From NCBI GenBank assembly GCA_951813575.1, contig OX638375.1, forward strand, positions 3,498,752 to 3,562,751: a stretch of 64,000 bases of DNA, written 5' to 3'. Both the position numbers and the translations under genes were made by a program. Each line of letters begins with the position of its first letter. Position 1 is the first letter of the stretch. The notes under the pieces are model-generated. The model made no database searches. It was not told the origin of the DNA and saw only the letters and a list, made by a program, of their open reading frames with translations. Shown here one piece after another: positions 4,145 through 23,970 of the stretch. This DNA comes from Candidatus Binatia bacterium (GTDB lineage Bacteria; Desulfobacterota; Binatia; UBA9968; JAJDTQ01).

Positions 4145-5170
4145 TCAACGGGCGCCGAACCGTTCGCGCCAGGAATCCACACACGCCGGGTTCACCACGG
4201 TCTCGGGCACTTGGCCGGCCAGCACCGTGAGTAAGCTCTGGGCGGCCATGCGCTCACCTGATACCTGCGACTGCGGGTTCGTGCCGATGATGTGCGGGGT
4301 CATGATCAGCCGCTCGGGGTCCACCTGCCGGATGGGATCCGACATGGGCAGCGGTTCCTCTTCGAACACGTCCACGGCGGCGCCGGCGATGACTCCATCG
4401 TTCAACGCCCGCGCCAGGTCATCCTGCTTGACGACGCCCCCGCGGCAGGTGTTCACCAGGTAGGCGGTGGGCTTCATCTTCTTGATTTCGGCCAGGGTGA
4501 TGAGCCGGCGCGTCTCCTCGGTGAGCGGCGTGTGCAGGGTGACGAGGTCGGATTCCCGGAGCACGGTGTCCAGCGACACCAGCTCCACACCCAGGTGCTG
4601 CACCGACTCCTGGGTGATGTAGGGATCGCAGGCGATGAGCCGCATCTCCCACGGACCCAGGCGCTTGGCGACCTCCTTGCCTACCCGTCCGAGGCCGACG
4701 ATGCCGACGGTGCGGCCGACCATCAGGTTGCCCCGGTGCTCGTTGCGCTTCCAGCCGCCCTCGCGCAGGAGCTGCTGGTTGTGCACCAATCGCTTGAACA
4801 GCATGGACATGAGCCCGACGGTGGCCTCGGCCACGCCGGTGAAGTTCTCCCGCGCCGGGCTGTTGCACACCAGGATGCCCAGCTCGGTAGCCGCCTCCAC
4901 GTCGATGGTCTCGTAGCCGATGGCGGCCTTGATCACCCCTCGCAGCTTCGGGCAGCGGGCCAGCACCCCGCCGCTGATGAAGTCCCGTTGGGCCGCCCAG
5001 ACGGCGTCGCTGTCGCCTATCAGAGCCACCAACTCGTCTTCCGTATAGCGGTGCTTGGGATGCTCGTCCTGGTCCTTCCCCAGCACGAGCTCGCAGCCCG
5101 CCTCCTCCAGCACGTCCCGCCCCACCGAAAGCTTGTGCGGGGCCGGGATACAGACCTTGTTGCCTTGCAT
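4145..5170 (-). CDS. D-isomer-specific 2-hydroxyacid dehydrogenase (NAD-binding)
   Basis: 341 aa with the GxGxxGxxxA Rossmann motif (GIVGLGRVGKEVAKRL) and the catalytic R/E/H arrangement typical of the D-2-HADH family. Confidence 0.85.
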   Translation of the reverse strand: MQGNKVCIPAPHKLSVGRDVLEEAGCELVLGKDQDEHPKHRYTEDELVALIGDSDAVWAAQRDFISGGVLARCPKLRGVIKAAIGYETIDVEAATELGILVCNSPARENFTGVAEATVGLMSMLFKRLVHNQQLLREGGWKRNEHRGNLMVGRTVGIVGLGRVGKEVAKRLGPWEMRLIACDPYITQESVQHLGVELVSLDTVLRESDLVTLHTPLTEETRRLITLAEIKKMKPTAYLVNTCRGGVVKQDDLARALNDGVIAGAAVDVFEEEPLPMSDPIRQVDPERLIMTPHIIGTNPQSQVSGERMAAQSLLTVLAGQVPETVVNPACVDSWRERFGAR

Positions 5171-9041: not shown

Positions 9042-9323
9042 TCACTCCACGCTTCTCAACTTCCCCGTCACGAATTTGTGGAGCGTGCTGGAGATCAGGG
9101 TTTGATAGGGCATCCCTTCCTTGGTTGCCTTCTTTTTTAGGGCTTCCAGATCGTGGGACGAGATCCGGATGTTGATGCGCTTGTCCTTCTGAAGGAAATC
9201 GTGTGCGGCTACTTCCAGTTTGCGTTTGGCTTCCTTGAAGTGGGTGATGCTTGTAAGTTCCCCACGTTCAAAGTCCTGGAGGAGTTGCAATTCCTCTTCG
9301 TCCAGTTTGAGAGGTTTTTTCAT
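9042..9323 (-). CDS. brnA: BrnA-family antitoxin (CopG-like)
   Basis: 93 aa with an acidic N-terminal part, then INIRISSHDLEALKKKATKEGMPYQTLISSTLHKF, typical of BrnA. It overlaps upstream brnT by 4 nt and sits in a local low-GC patch (about 50%). Confidence 0.7.
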   Translation of the reverse strand: MKKPLKLDEEELQLLQDFERGELTSITHFKEAKRKLEVAAHDFLQKDKRINIRISSHDLEALKKKATKEGMPYQTLISSTLHKFVTGKLRSVE

Positions 9324-9607
9324 CCGAGGTACTCCCTTGTCGCCCTTCTGCTGGGGATGATGGTTTTGAGAAACCGTGTTCCTCTCCGTTCCACGTACGG
9401 GACCAGGTACACGTACTCTTCCATGTTCAGAACGATGATCCGCTGGTTCGGATATCGGGATGCATTGGGATGCCTGATGATATCCAGGATGTCGCCATTC
9501 TCGATGTGAAAGACCACGTCTTCAAAACCCACGCCCCGTGTCTTCTCGAGTAGCGCATTCTTTTCATCATCCCAGTCGAATGCAGGCACGTCCGAGAACC
9601 CTCCCAT
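9320..9607 (-). CDS. brnT: BrnT-family toxin (DUF497 ribonuclease)
   Basis: FDWDDEKN...RGVGFEDV......QRIIVL.....YLVPYVERRGTRFLKTIIPSRRATREY matches DUF497/BrnT conserved positions. Confidence 0.75.
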   Translation of the reverse strand: MGGFSDVPAFDWDDEKNALLEKTRGVGFEDVVFHIENGDILDIIRHPNASRYPNQRIIVLNMEEYVYLVPYVERRGTRFLKTIIPSRRATREYLG

Positions 9608-9690: not shown

Positions 9691-10157
9691 GCCGTCGACC
9701 TCCGGGGAATCGCGGTAACCGACGCCGAGGTCGATCTCGGGGCGCCTCCGACGTGGTCCTCACCATGAGCGGCGGGGTCCTGTCCGGTTCCGTGGCGGGG
9801 GCGGGGAGCCTTCGGTACTAGGGCACGGTCTCCGAGGAGCGGGTTCAGGTCGCGGGCGTCACCCGTATCGTCCACCACCGGGAGTGAACGGGGCTCCGCC
9901 GGCGCCGCTCGGAATGTCGTGCGCCGGCCGTTCAGGCGATGCGGAGCCGCTTCGATCGAGCCGGAAGCGACCGCGGTGTCACACTTCCTCCGGGGTCGGC
10001 GTGGATGTCCGCGGAATATCCCAGTGTCAAGAAACTCGGAGGTCCACTTCTGTCGATGGGCACCCAAGCTGATCGACCGTGCCATACCGGCGTCAACGCG
10101 GGGGAGAGATTCCAAGACACCGGACTGAAAAATCTTCCATCCGCGGGGGAATCCAAG

Positions 10158-10552
10158 ATGAGTGACTCCAAACGACATGTAACCATTGCTGCGAGGGCCG
10201 TTCCGCCGCGAACGAAGCCATCCAACTACCCGGAGCCGTACTTCAGCCGTATGACCAAACGAGAGCAGAAGCCGCTCGGCGACTTCTTCGGCCTGAAGAA
10301 TTTCGGTGTGAACCTCACCAAGCTGGTGCCCGGTGGTGAGTCCGCACTGCTGCACTCTCACAGCAAGCAAGACGAGATGATCTATGTCCTTGAGGGCGAA
10401 CCAACGCTGGTAGTCGAGTCCGGCGAAACTATGCTCGCACCCGGCATGTGCACGGGTTTCCCGGCGCAGGCGAGGCGCATCACTTGGTCAACCGCACCGG
10501 CGAGGACGTTGTGATTCTGGAGATTGGTGACCGCACTAAGGGCGGCATATGA
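10158..10552 (+). pseudogene. Cupin-domain protein with a frameshift (or sequencing error) near 10470
   Basis: MSDSKRHV...LLHSHSKQDEMIYVLEGEPTLVVESGETMLAPGMCTGFPA then a frame jump. The shifted frame continues AGEAHHLVNRTGEDVVILEIGDRTKGGI* (cupin motif 2). GGGGGAA sits before the ATG. Confidence 0.45.
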
Positions 10553-10914
10553 GTTTCAGAGGGGCGGGAATCGAATGCTCCGGCTGCGGCGGAAGTAGAC
10601 AGCCTGACAGCGCCGAATGGGCGCACCCGCCTCACAGGACTGCGTGACCCGTGGCTCAATCCGACCGACCGAGTCCAGTGTGGACGAACCGGTCGCCGAC
10701 CACTCCACAAGGACAGACTAAGGCACAGGCCATGGCCATACCTTCAGCTTGGTATTTCGAGAGGTTGGGCGTATGATGACAGCGGAGATACCACTTGTGT
10801 CGGCCGACCTTCACCATGGCAGTCGTTCGGGCTGTCCTGAGTGCCAATAGTACGGATGGTTCGCCATCCGGGAAATATCGGTTCAATCAAATAGTGGAAT
10901 AGGGAGAAATTACA

Positions 10915-11274
10915 ATGAAGATGCCAACATCGGTAAAACCCGCCATTTGGGGTGCGATCGGCGGCGCGATCGCTACAATGATCGTCGGTTTCGCCTGGGG
11001 TGGCTGGGTGACGGGCGGGACGGCCGGACAGATGGCCTCGGCAGGCGCCGAGTCGGCTATTGTCTTAGCGTTTGCGCCACTCTGCGTTGCCAAGGCGGAG
11101 CTGCAGCCAGAACAGATCGCGGGCCTGAAGGGAGAGAGTTACTGGAAACGCAGCGAATTTGTCGTCAAGGCCGGCTGGGTTGCCAACGTGAGCGAACAAT
11201 ACCGCTCCGCGGTCGCGGAGGCGTGCGCAGTGACCGTCGTTGAAGCCTTGGAAGCGGCGCCGCCGCCAAAATGA
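10915..11274 (+). CDS. Hypothetical small membrane protein (glycine-zipper TM segment)
   Basis: 119-aa ORF with the strong RBS AGGGAGAAATTACAATG and the TM helix WGAIGGAIATMIVGFAWGGWV. No family recognised. Confidence 0.4.
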   Translation: MKMPTSVKPAIWGAIGGAIATMIVGFAWGGWVTGGTAGQMASAGAESAIVLAFAPLCVAKAELQPEQIAGLKGESYWKRSEFVVKAGWVANVSEQYRSAVAEACAVTVVEALEAAPPPK

Positions 11275-11398
11275 CGCCTTCGTGGTCGCCGCCCAAATCG
11301 ACCTTAGCAGGGCGGAAACGGTGATTCCGGCGCGCGCGGACGAGCACACCGACTACAAGTGTGCCTTTTGTGAACAGCCAGGTGTTCCTCCGGTGTCC

Positions 11399-14559
<3,161 letters not shown>

Positions 14560-14560
<1 letters not shown>

Positions 14561-16092
14561 CACTCCACTTTTCCATGCACGAACCAGCCGTGGCGTTTGG
14601 AATCGTAGTAGACCCACAGCCATGGGCCCTCGCCGGCGCGGACGAAGTGGTACTCGCGGTGCACCCCGGTACCCGAGCCCCACCATCCTCCGGAGATGAT
14701 GTAGGGGCCGGCACTCTCCCGGCCAAGAAAGCCGCCGCGGGTTCGGGCGCCGTCAACTGGGGCGTCGCCGGCCCGGGCATCCCTGACCACGGGCTCGGCC
14801 ATTGCAGCGGGCGGCGCGGGGTCCCTGAGCCGGACGGGCTTGGGGAAGAAACGCCGCACCAGCGGGCGCAGCCGGACCGGTCGCGGCCTCGGCGCCGGCA
14901 CGTCTTCCATGGGCTCCCAGGTGAAGCGCGCCTCCGGAAGATGCCCGGCACGGGGCCGCGCCCGCAGCAGCGCGCCGTCGCCGAACCGGGCGCGCAGCCG
15001 CGCCAGCGCGCGGTTGGCCGCGTCGGGGTCGCGCGCGGAGGCGCCGTGGAAAAGCTCTCCCTGCCGGATATCCGGCGAAGCTCCCCGGAGCTCCATGAGG
15101 ATTTCCGTCACCCCGGCCGGCAGCTCCGTGGCTTCCAGGCGCAGCCGCAAGAGGTCCAGGATCTGTGCCCGGTCCAGGATGGGCCGGGCCGGCCGCAGGG
15201 TCTCGGCCTTCTCCGACTTGTCGTCCAGGCGGAGCTGGAGGAGGAGGGCGGTCATCACCTCGTGGCGCTGCTCCAGCGCTTCAAGCAAAGGCTCCAGCAA
15301 CTCCTCCATGAGCACCGCCAGCCGCTGGCGGTCGCTCTCCGGGTAGTCCAGGAAGACCCCCGCGGCGGTGGGCTCGGACGGCGTCTCCGGATGGAGCGGG
15401 CTCCACAGGTCGCCCGCGGCCAGCCGGTGGAGACGGTGGGCTTCCCGTCCCAGCCGCGAGCGCACCTGGGACGCGGGCAGGTCCAGGAAGCCGCCCAGGG
15501 TGTGGATGCCGAGCCGGGCCAGGAGGTCACGGACCTTGGGGGCGAGGTCGAGACGTTCGATCCGGACGTCGCGGACATGTTTGTGCTCTTCCTCGGGCGT
15601 GCGGAAGACCACGACCCGCTCGCAGGCCCTGGCCGCGGCATAGCTGCCGAAACGCGAGAACCCCACGGCCACGGTGTTGCGAAGGCCGGCGCCGTCGAGG
15701 TCGCCGTGGATGAGCCCGGCCCATTCCTCTAGGCGGGGATGGAGCAGGGAAAGCCCCGAGGCCCCGAGCCAGAACACACCGGGCTCGTCCCGGGAGGGCT
15801 CCACCTCGGCGGCGAAGCGCCGCAGGCGTGGAACCAGGCCGTCCACGGCCTTGTGGATGGCCGAGCGGGAAATGACGTCCGCCCGGAGATGGCGCGAGAG
15901 CGCAAGCCCCGCGCCATAGCTCATGCCCGGGAGGATGCACATGGCCCGCGCCCGATGGTTTACCCAGAGGATGGTCCCCTGGGCCTTGTCCCGGTCCACC
16001 ACCGCGGCGGGATGGTCTTTCCAGTCCGGATGGTCCCGGAGCAGCAGTTGCAGGGGAAAGGCCGCAACGTCAACACAGGCCATCCGTTCCAC
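14560..16092 (-). CDS. imuB: ImuB (catalytically dead Y-family polymerase homolog) of the mutagenesis cassette
   Basis: N-terminal UmuC/DinB-like fold (ACVDVAAFPLQ...). It sits between imuA and dnaE2 and overlaps the imuA stop. Confidence 0.85.
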
Positions 16093-16717
16093 GGCACGAC
16101 TCCATGTGGCTCCATCCCGGAGCCCCCCGCTTGTCCTTGACCATGCGGATTTCCCAGTCGAAGCGGCTGAAGGCAGTCCTCGTGATACTGCCCTCGCCGT
16201 GAAGCGACACCAGGGGCCCCAGCGAGGGCGCGCCCCGCTTCTTGCGGGTGAGGCAGAGGAGCGCCGCGTGGTGCTTCCGGGCCAGCGCCGCCAGGCGGCT
16301 CTGGACCGCCATGTGCATCCGCGCCTCGGCCTTCAGGTCCAGCACCACCAGGCCGAACGCGCCGGAGCGCAGTAGCTGGTCGGCCGCGCGGGACGCGGCG
16401 AGGGCGTCGGGGACCCGGACCACCGGCAGGGCCTCGAGATCGATGCCCCACTCGGCGAAATCCGGCGGGAAGAAGATCGAGTTGCCGAAGCCGATCCACG
16501 CCGCGGGCTCTCCCCGCTGCTGGGCCTGGAGGATCAGCGCGGCCGCGGCGGTGAGGGAAGGGGCCGCGCCCGAGTCCGACATTTCGGTGAGCCGTCCGGC
16601 CAGGGAGGACAGGTTCCAGGCCCTCGGGGTCTCGCGGACAGGCCGGCGCCGTGGCGCCGCGGGGGCGGGGCCCGAAGCCGGTATGGCGTCGTGAGTCTTT
16701 TCGGCGAAAACGTCCAT
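16070..16717 (-). CDS. imuA: ImuA (SulA/RecA-like) of the mutagenesis cassette
   Basis: 215 aa with a RecA-like core (AWIGFGNSIFFPPDFAEWGIDLEALPVVR..GAFGLVVLDL). It sits between lexA and imuB. Confidence 0.75.
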   Translation of the reverse strand: MDVFAEKTHDAIPASGPAPAAPRRRPVRETPRAWNLSSLAGRLTEMSDSGAAPSLTAAAALILQAQQRGEPAAWIGFGNSIFFPPDFAEWGIDLEALPVVRVPDALAASRAADQLLRSGAFGLVVLDLKAEARMHMAVQSRLAALARKHHAALLCLTRKKRGAPSLGPLVSLHGEGSITRTAFSRFDWEIRMVKDKRGAPGWSHMESCRGTDGLC

Positions 16718-16804
16718 GAAAGCTCTCCGTGTCCCGCAAAAGGCAAAGGATCGGGCGCCGGGAACACGCTGTCCCGGATGCCGCGCCCATGCGACCCTTC
16801 GGGT

Positions 16805-17419
16805 TTACCCTTCCAGATAGCGTCTCACCTCCACCACCTTGCCCAGGACGGTGCACTCATCGGCCCTGGGGACGATGGTTGCGAAAGCCGGGTTCTCCGG
16901 GTGCAGCTCGATCCGGCTCCGGCGCAGCCGGAGCCTCTTGATGGTGGCCTCGTCGCCCACCAGGGCCACGACGATGTCGCCCGAGGCGGCTTCCGCCTGC
17001 TGCCTCACCACGACGATGTCGCCCGGAAGGATACCCGCTCCGGTCATGCTTTCCCCCTGGACCCGGAGCCCGAACACTTCCTCCGAGCCCCGTGACTGGA
17101 CCGGGATGTAGCCTTCGCATTCCTCGATGGCCGCCCGCAGCCCGCCGGCCTGCACCCGCCCCAGCAGCGGCACGAACAGCGTCCCAGGCTCCCGGGGCAG
17201 GCGATAGCCTCTGGATTTGCCGTGCGCCTTGACCAGCCGCCCCTCGGCTACCAGGCGTTCCAGATGCTGGCGGGCCGTCTGCACCGCCCTGAACCGGAAC
17301 GCCTCCTGGACCTCCCGCACCGTGGGAGGAAGCTCCTCCAGGATCCGCCTGCGCACGAACCGGTAAACCTTGTCCCGGGTCTCCCCCGGTGGAGTGAAGG
17401 GTGTCATGAGGATGCGCAT
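16805..17419 (-). CDS. lexA: LexA repressor (S24 peptidase, autocleaving)
   Basis: N-terminal winged HTH, then the A-G cleavage site region and the S24 Ser/Lys motifs (GESMTGAGI..GD, IKRL). The start is either ATG 17419 (MRIL) or ATG 17407 (MTPF). Confidence 0.85.
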   Translation of the reverse strand: MRILMTPFTPPGETRDKVYRFVRRRILEELPPTVREVQEAFRFRAVQTARQHLERLVAEGRLVKAHGKSRGYRLPREPGTLFVPLLGRVQAGGLRAAIEECEGYIPVQSRGSEEVFGLRVQGESMTGAGILPGDIVVVRQQAEAASGDIVVALVGDEATIKRLRLRRSRIELHPENPAFATIVPRADECTVLGKVVEVRRYLEG

Positions 17420-17443
17420 ACCAGACTTTTGTCTGGTATGCAA
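17415..17443 (-). promoter_or_regulatory. Candidate lexA operon promoter with a perfect 22-bp palindrome in the spacer (putative LexA operator TACCAGAC-N4-GTCTGGTA)
   Basis: The minus strand reads TTGCAT-accagacaaaagtctgg-TATGCG-cat. The palindrome ATACCAGACAAAAGTCTGGTAT (17418-17439) lies between the -35-like and -10-like hexamers, immediately before the lexA start codon. Confidence 0.45.
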
Positions 17444-17470
17444 GGCAAATCGGATCCGCGACAAAGCGAA

Positions 17471-18154
17471 TCAAGACTCGAAGGCTCTCTTTTCATAAAC
17501 GGCTGCTATCTGCTGGCCATCCCAAACGTAACAGAGGTGCCGCTCCTGGCGGGCGTTGGAAAGCAGCAGCGGGCGGAAGGTCGCGACGCACTCGCCGCCG
17601 TCGTGGCGTATGCTGTCGTAGGCGATGCCGTTGGAGCCTGCCTCGCGGAGCGTTAGTGCGAGGCGCCGGGCGACTGTGTAGTCGTCACGGCGGTAGACTT
17701 CGGGAAAGGCTGCCTGCCGGCCGCGAAGGTCGTGAAGGTCGCCCTCCAGATCGATCGCATAGACCCGCATATCGAGCTCCATGCGGGACTGTGCCGTGGC
17801 GCGCATGAAGCGCGCGCGATGATGCTTGGTTTCTGCAATGGCCGTGTCGAGATCCTTGGCGGCATAGAACACGCCGTAGCTGCCGTCGGAGAATCGGCTA
17901 CCTTCCGGGTTGAGATGGGTGAAGGCCGCCATGATCACGCTGGCGCCAGGGCCGCCGATGCGATCCTCGGGCGGCACCAGCCGGATATCGCCGGCCTCGT
18001 CCCGAAGCCGCGGGTTGGTCAGCGACTCCAGTTCGAAGATCGCTTCCAGATCCCCAGGATCGGCCACCCGCTCGAACAGTTGAATCGGCGGGAAGCGGCT
18101 TGGGACGATCCGCCAGCAGGGCTTCCACTCGAGGCGGACGACCGGCGGCGTCAC
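17471..18154 (-). CDS. RES-domain toxin (type II toxin-antitoxin system, NAD-targeting family)
   Basis: R..E..S signature (GSRFSDGSYGVFYAAKDLDTAIAE ... YDSIRH). A GTG start overlaps the antitoxin stop (GTGA). Confidence 0.8.
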   Translation of the reverse strand: MTPPVVRLEWKPCWRIVPSRFPPIQLFERVADPGDLEAIFELESLTNPRLRDEAGDIRLVPPEDRIGGPGASVIMAAFTHLNPEGSRFSDGSYGVFYAAKDLDTAIAETKHHRARFMRATAQSRMELDMRVYAIDLEGDLHDLRGRQAAFPEVYRRDDYTVARRLALTLREAGSNGIAYDSIRHDGGECVATFRPLLLSNARQERHLCYVWDGQQIAAVYEKRAFES

Positions 18155-18567
18155 GCCCAGCCGCCGCGCTGCGTATCGAGGTACTGGCGTACGACGAAGA
18201 GGTCGGCAACCTGACCCGACAACATGCGCTCCAGAGCCGAGCGCCCGCCGAACAGCGGGGCGCTGTTCGGCCGCTTCACCCATTCATCGGCGGCGGTTTC
18301 GTCAGGCAGCAGGATCTGGAGCGCCTTGTAGATGCCGAGGATGTATGAGATACGCTCCAGCGTGTCCTTCGGCAGGGTTGTGTTCGGGTTCTTCTTCCAC
18401 TTAAAGAAGGTCGACCGCGCTGTCACGCCGAGAAGTGTCATCTGTTCGGCGACCGATAGGTTCCAGAGGCCGGCAATGCGAAAGAAGGTGCGCAACGCCG
18501 GTCCGGAATGCCCCTTTCGGTCGATCATCGTCGTCGAACGGGCGGGCACTTGCATAACTAACTCCAT
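18151..18567 (-). CDS. Xre-family antitoxin with DUF2384 toxin-binding domain (partner of the RES toxin)
   Basis: C-terminal DUF2384 region (TLERISYILGIYKALQILL..EWVKRPNSAPLFGGRSALERMLSG). It lies immediately upstream of the RES gene. The likely start is ATG at 18555 (MQVPARS...) after GGAG. Confidence 0.75.
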   Translation of the reverse strand: MELVMQVPARSTTMIDRKGHSGPALRTFFRIAGLWNLSVAEQMTLLGVTARSTFFKWKKNPNTTLPKDTLERISYILGIYKALQILLPDETAADEWVKRPNSAPLFGGRSALERMLSGQVADLFVVRQYLDTQRGGWA

Positions 18568-18767
18568 TTATATCCTAGTTAGCAAAATAGTCTATATTCA
18601 TACTGAACGCAAGGCAACCTGGGAGGGCATTTACCTCACTGGTATGCCTTGGATCCCATACCACTCGATCCATTTCATGGTGTAAGGGGCTCCACCGTGC
18701 TGGCCGGGCAAAAAATAACAAAGTCCCCGACCGGTGCCGAACCCCCGCCGACGTTACTTCGCAGCGT

Positions 18768-19355
18768 CTACCGCCCCTCGGCGGCGTCGCACTCGAACTT
18801 CCTCCGCGCGGTCCGATGCGCGAGCCTCCCGGCTTCTCCTGAGAGGCTCGGGATGTTCCTGGGCCGGGACGGAGCACGAGACGGTGAATACGGACCGGGG
18901 GCCGAGGTAAGTGTTCCGTCAGCCCGTGAGGTGGGCGAATTAGCGCCTTTCGAGGCCGGGCCACCGCCACGCAGCACGTAGCGGAACCGGTCCCCGAACC
19001 TCTCGTAGCGCGCCACCGCCCGGTGTGTGCCCTTTCCCTTGCGGTTGGCGTAGCTGTCGTGGATGAAGCCGTGCTCGAAGACGGGCTCGCAAACCATGCA
19101 GAAGGCGTGATGGACCACCCGGTCACGGAACGGGGCAGCGGAAACCAGGCGGTGCTTGGGATCGAAGATCTCCATGGTCCGGTAACGGCCCGGCCGGTAG
19201 CGGCCGCGCCGAAACTCGTGCTCCAGTCGCAGTATCTCCTTTTCCTGGTTGGCGAGGAATGCCGCGGCGCCCGGCTTGGCGCGCCTTGCCCAACGCCGCA
19301 CGCCGCGCTGCCGCCGAAAGGGCCGGGAAGGAAGCAATGGCATCGAAGAGGTCAT
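18768..19355 (-). pseudogene. DGR-type reverse transcriptase, N-terminal fragment only (truncated after the YVLRG region; the rest of the ORF is non-RT sequence)
   Basis: Residues 40-128, ...YRPGRYRTMEIFDPKHRLVSAAPFRDRVVHHAFCMVCEPVFEHGFIHDSYANRKGKGTHRAVARYERF..RYVLRG, match RT domains 1-2 of DGR RTs. After that no frame shows RT motifs 3-7 (no YxDD). The gene overlaps avd by 4 nt. Confidence 0.65.
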
Positions 19356-19726
19356 CCGCCTTCATGGCTTTGGTGCGCCTTTCTCCAGGCGCCAATGCGA
19401 TGTCCGGTCTCGTCCAGAGAGCGTGCAGCGTATTCGTAGCGGCGGGAATCGAGACAGCGGAGGCCATAGGCCAAGCGGAACAGAAATCGCAGCTTCTCGA
19501 TGCCGAGGTTGGCGTGGGCGGGCGGCGCGTCCCGGCGCCGGGTGTAGGTGGCTTCTATCAGGGCCTCGAGGACATCCATGGCGGTACTCTGGATACGGTC
19601 GCCGAGAAGGAATTTGTGCGCGCGGGGGAAGCGGTTGACCGCCGGCACGAGCCACAGGATGAAGCGGTAGGGACAGTCGAGGGCCAGCCCGGTCTCCCGC
19701 GCCCTGTCGCTGGCGATCTCGGTCAA
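19352..19726 (-). CDS. avd: Avd (accessory variability determinant) of a diversity-generating retroelement
   Basis: 124-aa basic helical-bundle protein (…FPRAHKFLLGDRIQSTAMDVLEALIEA…KLRFLFRLAYGLRCL..YEYAARSLDETGHRIGAWRKA) resembling bAvd. TTG start. It lies between the FGE-fold target and the RT. Confidence 0.7.
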   Translation of the reverse strand: MTEIASDRARETGLALDCPYRFILWLVPAVNRFPRAHKFLLGDRIQSTAMDVLEALIEATYTRRRDAPPAHANLGIEKLRFLFRLAYGLRCLDSRRYEYAARSLDETGHRIGAWRKAHQSHEGG

Positions 19727-19825
19727 TTAACCCTCGCGGTTACAGGTCTGAAGCAGGATTTCTCATGAGAATCGTCCAGTGGGCTCCGCCCCCTGGACCC
19801 CCCAAGATGTAAAGAGGTAAAGGAT

Positions 19826-21646
19826 TCATGGGATGAGCGTTCGGGCAATGCGGAACCCGCTGCTGTTGCCCCGGAGCCCGGCGGAGAGCCTGACGCGGAA
19901 GGCCGACCGGAGGATCCACGGCTTGTTGAGCCAGGAACCGCCGCGCAACACGCGGGAGTCACAGTCCCGGCTGGACGTCCAAGCGCTTCCGTCCGTCGGA
20001 GCTCCCAAGTAATTCTCATGCCAGCAGTCCTCCACCCACTCCCATACATTGCCGTGTACATCATGCAAACCAAAATCGTTCGCCGCGAAAGAACCCACCG
20101 GAACTGTCTTACTCCGACGCATGCCCTTGCGACCCGATCCATACGTATAGTGTCCGTTGTAGTTCGCCTGAGCCGTTGAGATCGTGGACCCAAAGTGGAA
20201 CGGCCCCGTCGTCCCCGCTCGCGCCACGTACTCCCATTCCGACTCACTCAACAGCCGGTACCTCTTCCCCGTCTCCCGCGACAGCCACTCCACGTACGAC
20301 TTCGCGTCCCTCCAACTCACATTGATCACCGGACGACGACCACGACCCCATCCTCCGTCATCCGGCCGGTATCCGCCACACCCTCCCCCCGCCACGCACG
20401 CATCCCATTCCCCAAACGTTACCTCGTACTTCCCTACCGCAAGCGGCCCCGGTATCCTCACCCGGTGACGCGGTTCTTCGTCGATACTGCGCTCCGCTTC
20501 GTCCAGTGGCGAACCCATCATGTAACTCCCGCCAAGTATCGCCACCATCTCCGGACACTCAGCGCAATCGCGGAATACGAACGCTCTCAAAACAGCCGAG
20601 TCCCGGCGCACCAGCGCCACCCCCACCGCCGTCTTGCCCTTCGGCCCTCTGATCGCAATGTCTGCCCCCGCCTTCACCAACAACTCGATGATCTCCGAAT
20701 GTCCGTGCACCGAAGCCATGAACAGCGCCGTCGCCCCGTCCGCCACCTGGACATCCGGGTCCGCCTTCGCCTTCAACAGCGGCCCCACCATCAGCTTGTA
20801 TCCCTTGTTCGCCGCATGCATCAGCGCTGTCCAGCCCCGCCCGTCCCGAGCGTTCACGTCCGCACCGGCCTTCAGTGCCGCGTTCAATCCGTCGATGTCT
20901 CCCGCACTGACCGCCCGGTGAAGCACATCCGGGCGCGGAGCCGGCGCGACAGGCCGGCGCGGCCGGGCGGGTTGCGTCGACTTCTTTTCCGTTCCACCCC
21001 GCTGACGCTTCGCTACCGCCCTCAGAACCCGGATCCCGTCCGGTGTCAATTCATCGGATGGCGCCAGCCTGGCGTCGCGCAGAAACGCCCCATAGGCCTT
21101 CGCCGTACGGCCGCCCCATTGGCCATCCGCGGGCCCCGGCTTATAACCGAGTACTGCCAGCAATTCCTGGGCCTCCCTAATCACCTGGACGGGCGGCGGT
21201 CCCGCAACCTGACGGGCGGGAGCGGTAGAGGGTCGCTTCGCAGTCGCCGGAGCCGGCTTGTCGCCTCCCGCCGCCGACTGCCACGCCCTGGCGCGATCTT
21301 GCGCTGTGGCTACCTGCTGCGGCGTCATCTTCGCGGCCAGCGTGTCGCGCTCCTTCAACGCCTCCATCTCGCCCCGGCTGGCCGCAAGATTGAACCACAT
21401 GTGCGCCAGCACGTAGTCCTGCGGCGCGCCCAACCCCTTGAGATACAGCCGCCCCAGAGCCAGCATCGCCCGGCGGTCCCCCGCGCCCGCGCCCGCCCGC
21501 CACTGTTCCAGCGCCTCAGCCGGGCGACCCGCCTTCCAGGCCTGCTCCCCCGCTTCATAGTCCGCTACGGCCGGAGGCGTACAGAAGATCAGCAATGATA
21601 TAGTCAACGCCGCGGAACGGATTGCATGCCGAATGTCTATTCTCAT
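19826..21646 (-). CDS. DGR target protein: secreted multidomain protein (signal peptide, Sel1 repeats, PG-binding domain, ankyrin repeats) with a C-terminal FGE-sulfatase/C-type-lectin-fold domain carrying the variable region
   Basis: Start MRIDIRHAIRSAALTISLLIFCTPPAVA (signal peptide, GGAG upstream). Sel1-like LALGRLYLKGLG, PG_binding_1-like ELLAVLGYKPGPADGQWG, ANK repeats (GWTALMHAANKG..GATALFMASVHGH) and FGE hallmarks (YRLLSESEWEYVARAG, GNVWEWVED, RVLRGGSW). Confidence 0.8.
   Translation of the reverse strand: MRIDIRHAIRSAALTISLLIFCTPPAVADYEAGEQAWKAGRPAEALEQWRAGAGAGDRRAMLALGRLYLKGLGAPQDYVLAHMWFNLAASRGEMEALKERDTLAAKMTPQQVATAQDRARAWQSAAGGDKPAPATAKRPSTAPARQVAGPPPVQVIREAQELLAVLGYKPGPADGQWGGRTAKAYGAFLRDARLAPSDELTPDGIRVLRAVAKRQRGGTEKKSTQPARPRRPVAPAPRPDVLHRAVSAGDIDGLNAALKAGADVNARDGRGWTALMHAANKGYKLMVGPLLKAKADPDVQVADGATALFMASVHGHSEIIELLVKAGADIAIRGPKGKTAVGVALVRRDSAVLRAFVFRDCAECPEMVAILGGSYMMGSPLDEAERSIDEEPRHRVRIPGPLAVGKYEVTFGEWDACVAGGGCGGYRPDDGGWGRGRRPVINVSWRDAKSYVEWLSRETGKRYRLLSESEWEYVARAGTTGPFHFGSTISTAQANYNGHYTYGSGRKGMRRSKTVPVGSFAANDFGLHDVHGNVWEWVEDCWHENYLGAPTDGSAWTSSRDCDSRVLRGGSWLNKPWILRSAFRVRLSAGLRGNSSGFRIARTLIP
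19829..19960 (-). other. Putative DGR variable region (VR) at the 3' end of the target gene
   Basis: The C-terminal codons are ctc aac aag ccg tgg atc ctc cgg tcg gcc ttc cgc gtc agg ctc tcc gcc ggg ctc cgg ggc aac agc agc ggg ttc. A run of NNC codons (ctc, aac, atc, ttc, gtc, ggc, agc) sits at the positions that are AAC in template repeats of FGE-fold DGR targets. Confidence 0.5.
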
Positions 21647-22099
21647 CCTGATTGAACTCCGTGGCGAAAGGCTTCCTGAAACCTTCGAAGGGCACTCCGC
21701 CGTCCGCACCCGCCCATACCAACAGCCACCGCATTGGCGCAGAGTGGACTGGTAGGTAGTTTCCAACTCCTCCCTCCGCCCTCCGATACATCGCCTTGCA
21801 GTGCGGCCGTGGCTTAACCTGGAGGTCACACGTTGGTTTCCAGCACAACCCGTCTTCCGACTGGATAAACCCTCGAACAAAAGTCTTCAACGGCGGCGGT
21901 CCAAAGCACCGCCGTCAGGCAGGAGACGAGCCCCCATTTCGCGCTAACGCTCATGCCATCATTCTCCGCGTTACAACGGCGGGAGTGGATCGACCCGCAC
22001 GCTTTTCGCCCCTCGGTCCCTTGAGAACGTCCGAACTATGGCTAGAGACAGAAGCGCTGGCGGACTCGATGCTACCTCTATGCACGGGAACCGGCCAAC

Positions 22100-22537
22100 G
22101 ATTATTGAATGCTGCCACAACTCCGTTTTCTACAATCTCTAGAATAGGTACCACGACTACCTCCAGTTCCCGCTGGTCGTCGTGTCCTTTGTTGCTCCAG
22201 ATAGCGTTGGCGTTCCGCCTGGCGCTGCCGGTTGAACTGAATAATGTTCTGAAGCGTATTCTGGAATGCCTTCTGTGCGCCCCCGCTGCCTCCGAAGGTG
22301 GTGGTGCTGGGTGCGCTTGAGCCCAACTGCTTCTTCCAGGCTGCCGCGGCTTCGCGCTCCTTGAGCAAAAGTCTTCAACGGCCGGAAGACGGCCGTGGAG
22401 GCGCATTTGACGGTGTCTCGGGCGTTCTCCAAAGCATCGCGAAGACCTGCCTCCGCGGAAGGAGCAGCCAACGCCACCCCAGCGGCTAGGGCCGCGGGCA
22501 GAACGGTGGAGCGAAAACATTTCGGCAAACGAGTCAT
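22100..22537 (-). pseudogene. Possible frameshifted small secreted protein (signal peptide, then Q/R-rich region in a second frame)
   Basis: ORF 22157..22537 starts MTRLPKCFRSTVLPAALAAGVALAAPSAEA (signal peptide). The plausible continuation AWKKQLGSSAP..QNTLQNIIQFNRQRQAERQRYLEQQR is in the +1 frame (ORF 22102..22368). Confidence 0.25.
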
Positions 22538-22547
22538 CTCGTGCCCC

Positions 22548-23030
22548 CTATTCGGTCAGCGACGTCAGGAACAGCCGTTGCAACCCGCAACTCCCTCCGC
22601 TCAGCCGGCAAAGAGCGAAGACATAGAGACGGCCGTCCTCCGGAAGTGACGCCACCATCAGGCGATGGTTCCCGCCCGCATCGAGCGTCATGTCGAGTCG
22701 CAGTCCCGCGACGAATCCCGCGGGGAGACGCGCCAGCGCGCTGGCGGTTGCGGCGTCCGTGTCGGGAGCGCCGGCCCGGATCGCGGCCGCATCCCTGGCC
22801 GCGAGCGCGTCATCGATCCTCTCCAGCGTCGGACCGAGCCACACCGGGCGGCCCGCGGCCCATTGCACGCGCATCGCCATATTCCACGCCAGCCGTGGAA
22901 AAACCGCGCGCATGTCGTTCGCCGCGGCCGCGAATGTCACGCCATCCCGGAAGCCCTCCAGAGCCGTAGCCGGATGGGCCTTGCGAAACGATCCGAGCCG
23001 CCGGGCCGGGATGTCGCGGAGAGCCGCCAT
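22548..23030 (-). CDS. Hypothetical protein (no family recognised)
   Basis: 172-aa ORF 22548..23066, with MAALRDIPARRL as the likely start. Composition is protein-like but there is no identifiable motif. Confidence 0.3.
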   Translation of the reverse strand: MAALRDIPARRLGSFRKAHPATALEGFRDGVTFAAAANDMRAVFPRLAWNMAMRVQWAAGRPVWLGPTLERIDDALAARDAAAIRAGAPDTDAATASALARLPAGFVAGLRLDMTLDAGGNHRLMVASLPEDGRLYVFALCRLSGGSCGLQRLFLTSLTE

Positions 23031-23300
23031 CGGTCCAGCCTTGTCCTTGGTCCATGGGGGTTGCAACGCGACGGGCGCCGCAGCATCGGCAAATCCGCCC
23101 TGCCGATGTCGGCGACACGGCGCTTGCCGAGCCGCGGGAGGATACGCCCGTCGATGATCTTTCGATGGAGCGCGGCGGTGGCGGGCTTCAGATGGCCGGG
23201 CGCGTACTCGTCCATGAAGCGCCGGGCGAGGTCGGCCATGGTGGCGCCGCCCGCCTTGCGGGGAGTCTTCCCTTCGAGGTCGCGCCCGGTCCTGGCGAGG
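22950..23300 (-). pseudogene. Tyrosine integrase N-terminal (core-binding/SAM-like) fragment, degenerate
   Basis: The minus-strand frame reads ..GRDLEGKTPRKAGGATMADLARRFMDEYAPGHLKPATAALHRKIIDGRILPRLGKRRVADIGRADL. This resembles P4-type integrase core-binding domains (TFxEvAxxWlexHxxxlkpsTxxxyxxxLexxilPxlGxxxixeI). No catalytic domain follows. Confidence 0.4.
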
Positions 23301-23970
23301 GTGACGATCTCTGCGGCGCGCGGCCGCCGGGGTGATGGGACCGCGGATTTTCCGACCGTCCCCCGGTCGAACTCTCCGGCATCAGCTGGACACGAAACCG
23401 GCGATTGACCCCGGCCCGGCGGGGCGCTACGGTGACTTTCTCCGAGGCACCAAACTGACTTGAGGACATACGCGCGCTTGCAGCGACTTAGTATTGGTTG
23501 AATGGGGTTACATATCGATTACGGCTCAAATGAGAATATTCCTAACATATTGATAAATAGGCCAAAAAACGATTTCAATGCAGAAAGGACCCGCAGATTC
23601 ATAACGCTATTTGTGAGACAGGACACTAGATAGTTAGCTGTTCCTGGTAAGATCGACCTCCATTTGAGTCGAGGACGATCATTCGGCGGCGGACCAGTCG
23701 GAGGGATCGACCGCCGGCCGGAATGGATCGTGGACACGAAGGCATCTTGCCTTGAACTCTGCCTCGCCCATGGTTGCCATTGGATTCACCTCTTACGCAG
23801 GGAGCACCTGAAAATATACAACAGTACACTCATAGTATACATGTTCAAGCTGTGCTGTCCGATCGCGATACCTGTCGAGCCCCGATTCGCACCCCGCTAC
23901 ACTATCTGTTAAAAATTTTCCCATCTCGCTCCGAAACCCACGAACGACACCGGGGCCGGGAGGATGCAGC

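Follow-up and report, generated by a model that had tools for sequence, protein, structure and literature searches.

Truncated reverse transcriptases (RTs) of diversity-generating retroelements (DGRs), arising from transposon insertion, nonsense mutation or frameshift, have been catalogued (Schillinger et al., 2012; PMC3521204). The prototype DGR, that of Bordetella phage BPP-1, has the order mtd-avd-TR-brt. ParST, NatRT and GndRX belong, together with MbcTA, to the RES-Xre type II toxin-antitoxin (TA) systems. Modules of this family are well characterised, e.g., MbcTA of M. tuberculosis (PMC6436930), and one of them, GndRX, was linked to genotoxic stress (PMC12457610).

Here, a locus is described in which the remains of a DGR lie upstream of an Xre/RES pair. 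"The window" refers throughout to the whole 64-kb stretch of DNA that was analysed. The initial annotation of this DNA suggested that the TA module, or a deletion associated with it, had replaced the C-terminus of the RT and possibly the template repeat (TR). The reading favored here, at a probability of about 0.8, is that the stretch 18568-18964 is a non-functional deletion scar in a decayed DGR, and that the leader next to it belongs to an unrelated Xre/RES module, which is intact.

Overall Organization of the Locus

All the genes discussed are encoded on the minus strand, window coordinates are used throughout, and the features are listed from high to low positions (Table 1). Deletion junction 1 denotes 18965/18964 and deletion junction 2 denotes 18951/18950.

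Table 1. Features of the locus, ordered in the direction of transcription.
Feature	Position	Strand	Evidence or remark
Phd-PIN remnant	23668..23780	-	Alignment with L084 and L085
28-bp inverted-repeat arm	23602..23629	none	Near the left end of the foreign insert
Tyrosine integrase fragment, N-terminal SAM-like domain only	22937..23239	-	Pfam PF14659, E = 3e-5
DGR target gene, intact ORF, 684 aa	19826..21880	-	Pfam
Variable region (VR) of the DGR target	~19838-19957	-	Comparison with L001 and L002
Predicted GC-rich hairpin	19773..19798	-	Folding with DNA parameters, z = -2.4
Avd, intact DGR accessory protein	19352..19726	-	Pfam bAvd, NCBIfam DivGenRetAVD
DGR RT pseudogene, N-terminal ~133 codons	18965..19365	-	Alignments with relatives
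14 bp of non-RT sequence, equal to L002 2213-2226	18951..18964	-	Between deletion junctions 1 and 2
EamA (DMT), last 4 codons, stop and 3' flank	18909..18950	-	95% identical to L089 10262-10304
Non-coding DNA, elsewhere found only in L002	18774..18908	-	Comparison with relatives
PIN 3' end, last 5 codons, stop and 14 nt	18740..18773	-	Match to L084
AT-rich leader upstream of Xre	18568..18739	-	GC 0.49
Xre-family antitoxin	18151..18567	-	Pfam PF20432 and PF09722
RES-domain toxin, 227 aa	17471..18154	-	Pfam RES, E = 2e-33
lexA promoter region, where backbone homology resumes	17419..17444	-	Conserved in L083, L084 and L085
lexA, imuA, imuB, dnaE2	17419-11399	-	

Relatives of the chromosomal backbone were found via LexA homologues at 90-94% identity: three long contigs, L083-L085, share it with the window, 85-91% of the nucleotides being identical. 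This backbone consists of an ABC-transporter operon, a short variable slot, and lexA-imuA-imuB-dnaE2, which we take to be a LexA-regulated SOS mutagenesis cassette. The slot contains a Phd-PIN pair in L084 and L085, and additionally HigBA in L084. Neither gene of the pair is an intact ORF in the window: Phd, with its ATG at 23780, has an internal deletion of ~137 bp at 23734/23733, and of PIN only 5 codons at each end are left. The 5' remnant of PIN opens with the ATG at 23682 and breaks off behind codon 5, at 23668, where foreign DNA begins. The 3' remnant matches L084 (8722-8755) at 31 of 34 bases, whereas 30 shuffles gave no more than 23 of 34; this remnant is just 34 nt long, perhaps ~65 with gaps, and the 3' third of the adjacent 18774-18908 may be further degraded PIN sequence. 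The presence of both remnants shows that PIN codons 6 to ~131 gave way to a 4.9-kb mosaic (23667-18774). The mosaic carries the repeat arm, the integrase fragment, further ORFs, the DGR remnant (target with VR, avd, and RT), and the tail of EamA. A segment at ~22229-23358 holds the integrase fragment as well as a 172-aa ORF (23066-22548) without a family match; this 1.13-kb segment is absent from L001, a contig that is described below.

On the other side, backbone homology resumes 26 nt past the RES stop codon. A palindrome, TACCAGACAAAAGTCTGGTA (17438-17419), runs into the lexA ATG and is retained ahead of lexA in L083-L085 apart from one or two changes; it may be a LexA operator, though of an unusual sequence type. 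The lexA-imuA-imuB-dnaE2 cassette is flanked by two variable slots rich in TA modules (17471-23780 upstream and 9042-9607 downstream in the window), and the downstream slot contains a BrnT/BrnA(CopG) pair in the window and in L084, and RHH/PIN in L083.

Remains of the DGR and Loss of the RT C-terminus

The target gene encodes Sel1, PG-binding and ankyrin domains and a C-terminal FGE-sulfatase domain with a C-type lectin fold (Pfam). The latter (PF03781, E = 1.7e-52) spans residues 441-680 of 684, so the VR lies within the C-terminal fold. The identity of Avd was supported by NCBIfam DivGenRetAVD (96 bits, cut-off 80) and by Pfam bAvd (E = 2e-12). Between the window and L001, 31 of the 120 VR bases differ (26%), against 1.3% in avd; such divergence, concentrated in the VR while avd changes little, is what past DGR activity leaves behind. 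Taken as a whole, the part of the target with the FGE domain is 13.7% diverged from L001, also much more than avd. Across the target gene (20000-21600), the GC skew of the plus strand is strongly negative, falling to -0.49 at 20200-20399 and far exceeding that of the neighbouring genes.

In contrast to target and avd, which are intact, the RT is a stub. When aligned at the DNA level with L001 and L002, the window loses RT homology at junction 1, after YVLRG, and tblastn with the full-length relatives P0010, P0005, P0006, P0023 and P0051 recovered only RT residues ~1-134, with the match ending at 18969. No further RT match was found by tblastn in any frame of 18568-18964 or in the remainder of the 64 kb. 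Both the end of RT similarity, put at about 18975 by the initial annotation, and the absence of RT motifs beyond it in any frame were thus borne out. The stub is 77-87% identical (tblastn) to the N-termini of longer relatives that reach the YVDD motif. In an alignment of 20 sequences, the window follows the RT family through RYVLRG and then diverges; the less truncated relatives continue with DIYRYFPAIDH, and the diverged sequence of the window is common only to P0002. The 195-aa ORF that contains the RT fragment has hundreds of homologues, all of which match its first ~130 residues only. Altogether, ~133 of ~330 RT codons are kept and about 200 C-terminal residues are missing, and within the 64 kb there is no complete DGR-clade RT with YxDD and the SQ dipeptide of motif 4. 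The stub itself is damaged by an extra G (+1; one of 19285/19284) relative to both close relatives, L001 and L002, owing to which the native ATG at 19365 opens only 27 in-frame RT codons.

What preceded the break can be seen in L001, which is 94.6% identical to the window over 22232-18965. It is a metagenome contig from long reads at 2x coverage and retains a full-length RT of about 305+ residues, which is spread over three frames; the start of a TR follows 60 bp on, and there is no TA pair. The initial annotation had proposed alignment with a relative carrying an intact DGR as a check, and L001 provides this in part: it shares the insert sequence without a visible chromosomal flank, so the comparison concerns the same element and not necessarily the same site. 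The DGR copy of L001 is, by its sequence, also inactivated, by an independent event, since its TR is interrupted after ~34 nt by an IS3-like element (L001 4191-4300, with an HTH_Tnp_1 ORF at 4292). An intact RT followed directly by the same Xre/RES pair, the arrangement named in the initial annotation as refuting its proposal, was not seen among the relatives.

It could be argued that the organism has an intact RT and that the break arose in assembly, from a chimeric join or a collapse. Frameshifts are apparent in many close RT homologues on Mb-scale contigs, which suggests that indel-prone assemblies are common among the data used, and the +1 G as well as the 681-bp deletion described below are confined to the assembly of the window, and either could be an assembly error. 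However, junction 1 is base-for-base the same in L002, a metagenome contig that is 99% identical to the window and comes from a different sample and a different assembly. Because L002 was assembled independently, the RT junction is not a sequencing artefact, and an intact RT in the organism is extremely improbable. Among the RT homologues on Mb-scale contigs, P0013, P0021, P0029, P0031, P0044, P0050, P0052 and others are either short or shifted in frame, at points that differ between them; widespread decay of this DGR clade or long-read indel errors in GC-rich genomes could account for it.

Loss of the TR and State of the VR

Repeat finding and a sensitive blastn search with the VR revealed no TR-like copy of the VR in the 64 kb, with chance matches of at most 33 nt only. 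With no second copy of the VR in the window, there is no TR/VR pair with differences at TR adenines, and the TR is gone from this stretch. Its former position is indicated by P0041 and P0048, in which the RT reads through into an Asn-rich, TR-encoded peptide, RVLRGGSWNNNPRNLRSANRNRN; this read-through gives the order target-avd-RT-TR for the family. By our own reading, the VR peptide of the window, RVLRGGSWLNKPWILRSAFRVRL, differs from the TR peptide of P0041 and P0048 almost only at Asn positions. At the level of sequence these differences support a former VR; they supply no TR.

About 30 nt past the target stop, a 10-bp interrupted GC-rich hairpin is predicted. From this folding it is a candidate for the target-recognition hairpin of the DGR, with no TR to define an initiation of mutagenic homing (IMH) sequence.

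We infer that the DGR is no longer able to diversify its target and that the VR is frozen. The VR shows 0 of 120 differences from L002, which is weak evidence for freezing since only ~2 would be expected anyway. An RT and a TR elsewhere in the 4.2-Mb genome might still rewrite the VR in trans, and target, Avd and hairpin would be kept accordingly. The intact ORFs of target and Avd and the predicted hairpin downstream of the VR fit such an arrangement, and DGRs with several, sometimes remote, VRs are known (PMC3521204). Against it, the 64 kb contain neither RT nor TR, two samples have an identical VR, and among the top 120 RT homologues no other one is encoded on a contig of 4,210,610 bp like that of the window. 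Service in trans is therefore considered highly improbable, and an inactive DGR is the preferred reading.

Origin of the DNA Between the RT Stub and the Antitoxin Gene

The filler between the RT break and Xre, 397 bp long (18568-18964), was described in the initial annotation as lacking a coding signal and as locally AT-rich near 18570-18720. Both descriptions hold. The codon-position spread of G+C is 0.3-0.46 in the genes of the window, drops to 0.04-0.18 across the filler, and recovers inside Xre. The GC content is 0.494 in 18568-18739 (172 bp), compared with 0.684 in 18740-18964 and 0.65-0.70 in the flanks. The possibility that the filler encodes a small protein, either the 195-aa RT-stub fusion ORF or a 110-aa ORF on the plus strand, or a regulatory RNA, draws on the long ORFs that cross it on both strands. 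Such ORFs are expected by chance at 65-70% GC, though, and the codon-position GC periodicity is missing. Pfam returned nothing for the two long ORFs, Rfam no family in the filler, and RNA folding was ordinary, no better than in shuffles (z = -0.32); moreover, the sequence was found in only one relative, which is 99% identical. A coding or regulatory-RNA role has hardly any probability beside that of a non-functional scar. A strict scan of the filler detected no sigma-70 consensus site and a single terminator-like site, which is the chance level. Outside the filler, a weak Rfam match to Xoo8 at 17365-17502 was rejected as chance (23.7 bits against a gathering score of 90).

L002 indicates how the filler was assembled. 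It carries 681 bp (L002 2227-2907) between the RT stub and Xre that are absent from the window. After the RT break, L002 continues with 187 bp (2213-2399), a 28-bp repeat, an EamA gene that has lost an internal part, window-like sequence, and Xre, so that 1.09 kb of non-DGR, non-TA DNA separates the RT break from Xre. The EamA remnant of L002 (2497-2922) consists of the N-terminal 96 codons fused to the C-terminal 45 codons. The 681-bp segment is flanked in L002 by imperfect direct repeats of ~17 nt, GCGGTGGCCCGGCCTCG and GCGATTGGCCGTCCCTG, and these bracketing repeats fit a slippage-type deletion in the lineage of the window. It is because of this second deletion, with its endpoint at junction 2, that the RT stub lies nearer to Xre in the window than in L002.

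The EamA tail beyond junction 2 is foreign to the slot. In close relatives, EamA lies between a gene of the dihydrodipicolinate synthase (DHDPS) family and an oligopeptide (Opp) ABC-transporter operon, with neither a TA pair nor lexA; given this native context elsewhere in the genome, EamA is not ancestral to the slot upstream of lexA. An assignment of 18950-18907 as a terminal repeat of the IS66 family was rejected, since the matching L089 sequence is the C-terminal end of EamA with its 3' flank. The motif TCACGGGCTGACGGAA follows the EamA stop in the window (18914-18929), L002 and L089, and an inverted, slightly different copy is located upstream of EamA in L086 (9883-9907), L087 (2738-2762) and L089 (1237-1261). 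This motif may be a regulatory or repeat element flanking the transporter gene.

The 28-bp repeat, TAACGCTATTTGTGAGACAGGACAYTAG, is found in the window at 23629-23602, left of the DGR, and its inverted partner in L002 at 2400-2427, right of the RT stub; the right arm survives in L002 only, as the stretch containing it was deleted from the window. In two unrelated JGI metagenome contigs (L090 1157-1322 and L091 1010-1175), both arms occur only 110 bp apart in a unit of ~166 bp that resembles a miniature inverted-repeat element (MITE) and adjoins an oligopeptide permease gene. No match to the repeat was found in viral contigs. That the DGR was the cargo of a transposon-like element bounded by these repeats is doubtful; alternatively, the 28-bp arms may belong to a small element into which the DGR inserted. 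If the full element did move as a unit, it would represent a new type of small mobile vehicle for a DGR, with 18568-18964 as a scar of its internal decay.

The Xre/RES Module and Its Role at the Junction

The Xre ORF runs from the ATG at 18567, as the initial annotation had it; the ATG at 18555 has a better-spaced GGAG and is the called start in L002. Its assignment as an Xre (DUF2384) antitoxin was confirmed by PF20432 (Xre-like-HTH, 46.6 bits) and PF09722 (Xre_MbcA_ParS_C, 42.7 bits), both above cut-offs. The overlap of the RES start with the antitoxin stop is likewise read directly from the sequence, the GTG at 18154-18152 and the TGA at 18153-18151 forming GTGA, and the antitoxin-first arrangement recurs in 80 loci. 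Both ORFs are intact, and the toxin was identified by PF08808 with its Arg, Glu and Ser motifs present. In a weak alignment, GSRF, AIAE and YDSIRH of RES correspond to GSRF, AMAE and YRSARC of 8qnq_C; among solved structures, neither RES nor Xre had a significant sequence match. Judged by sequence, Xre/RES is probably a functional, independent TA module. By analogy with the characterised RES-Xre systems, the toxin would deplete NAD+, as MbcT does, and the Xre-like antitoxin would neutralise it. A palindrome, CTAACT-N13-AGTTAG, spans the ribosome-binding site in the leader of Xre, and the AT-rich 172 bp presumably serve as an autoregulated promoter/operator of Xre/RES.

Xre is 72-91% identical at 80 loci of species-representative genomes from several phyla. 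All of these loci have unrelated contexts, none with a DGR or with the lexA neighbourhood of the window, and at the nucleotide level the TA pair resembles them no further than 47 bp ahead of Xre on one side and the RES stop on the other. Since homology is confined to the module while the flanks differ, Xre/RES is a compact TA module that was acquired horizontally and separately. With its leader it measures ~1.29 kb, bordered by the PIN 3' end on one side and by the lexA promoter on the other.

This mobility, together with the only 397 bp that separate the pair from the RT break in the window, speaks for the proposal that the insertion of Xre/RES, or a deletion produced by it, removed the RT C-terminus and the TR, the filler being the edge of TA-bearing DNA. 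However, L002 has the same RT break and 1.09 kb of unrelated DNA before Xre, backbone PIN 3' sequence lies between the RT stub and Xre in the window and in L002 alike, and TA homology to other genomes stops within 47 bp of the antitoxin. The PIN 3' sequence, in particular, places the TA pair outside the DGR-bearing insert. A part for the TA module in the loss is therefore very unlikely. From the initial proposal, the loss of RT C-terminus and TR by deletion stands, as supported by L001 and the search for the TR, while the role given to the TA module was not supported.

Xre/RES occupies a hotspot that is shared with the Phd-PIN and HigBA modules of the relatives. In four loci from alphaproteobacterial MAGs (L072, L077, L078 and L082, at ~10000-18000), an Xre/RES homologue lies ~1.5-2.5 kb upstream of imuB-dnaE2; in L072, the only one inspected, an ImuA-like ORF is present, and a cupin gene and a second ORF lie between Xre/RES and the cassette. 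This may be a coincidence or a recurrent association.

Proposed History of the Locus

The following sequence of events would account for the locus under the preferred reading, i.e., a deletion scar followed by an unrelated TA module. The ancestral slot between the ABC-transporter operon and lexA-imuA-imuB-dnaE2 would have held Phd-PIN, the body of PIN then being replaced by the 4.9-kb mosaic with the integrase fragment and the DGR. A deletion inside this foreign insert would have removed the RT C-terminus and the TR, joining codon ~133 of the RT to other DNA of the insert. A second, later deletion of 681 bp, specific to the window, would have taken the 28-bp repeat and most of the EamA remnant, bringing the RT stub to 397 bp from Xre, and the +1 G would have put the stub out of frame.

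For annotation, the RT should be recorded as a pseudogene, the ~400 bp as non-coding, and the DGR as inactive, with VR, Avd and target present and the TR lost; Xre/RES should be recorded as an independent and probably functional TA module. The significance of the locus beyond annotation is small: it has undergone ordinary genome decay, of which, in the case of a DGR, it offers a clear worked example. For surveys of DGRs, it illustrates that intact target and Avd genes can outlast the RT and the TR. The slot upstream of lexA-imuA-imuB-dnaE2 repeatedly collects TA modules and foreign DNA.

Comparison With Known Systems

The locus resembles known DGRs, with that of BPP-1 as the prototype, in having a C-terminal VR in a C-type-lectin/FGE-sulfatase fold, an Avd protein, and a localised divergence of the VR between lineages. 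The TR follows the RT in the family of the window, whereas it is located between avd and brt in BPP-1. Compared with a working DGR, the window holds a remnant: of the ~330 RT codons only ~133 are left, and the 64 kb contain no TR. With the catalogued inactivated DGRs it shares the truncated RT.

The neighbouring TA pair shares with MbcTA-type RES-Xre modules the antitoxin-first order, an HTH domain joined to an MbcA/ParS C-terminal domain, the Arg, Glu and Ser residues of RES, the 4-nt start/stop overlap, and a mobile, patchy distribution. It is distinguished by its position directly upstream of the lexA-imuA-imuB-dnaE2 cassette, a position to which the genotoxic-stress link of GndRX is only loosely relevant. 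The cassette itself belongs, by its gene order, to the conserved backbone; it only defines the edge of the slot and is not part of the DGR scar. As for VapBC-type (Phd/VapB-PIN) modules, an intact pair is present in L084 and L085 at the exact position upstream of lexA, whereas that of the window was reduced to remnants, destroyed when the DGR-bearing DNA arrived. Every component of the locus is of a known kind, from the DGR remnant and the deletion scar to the ordinary TA module, and the slot that holds them is plastic and rich in TA modules.
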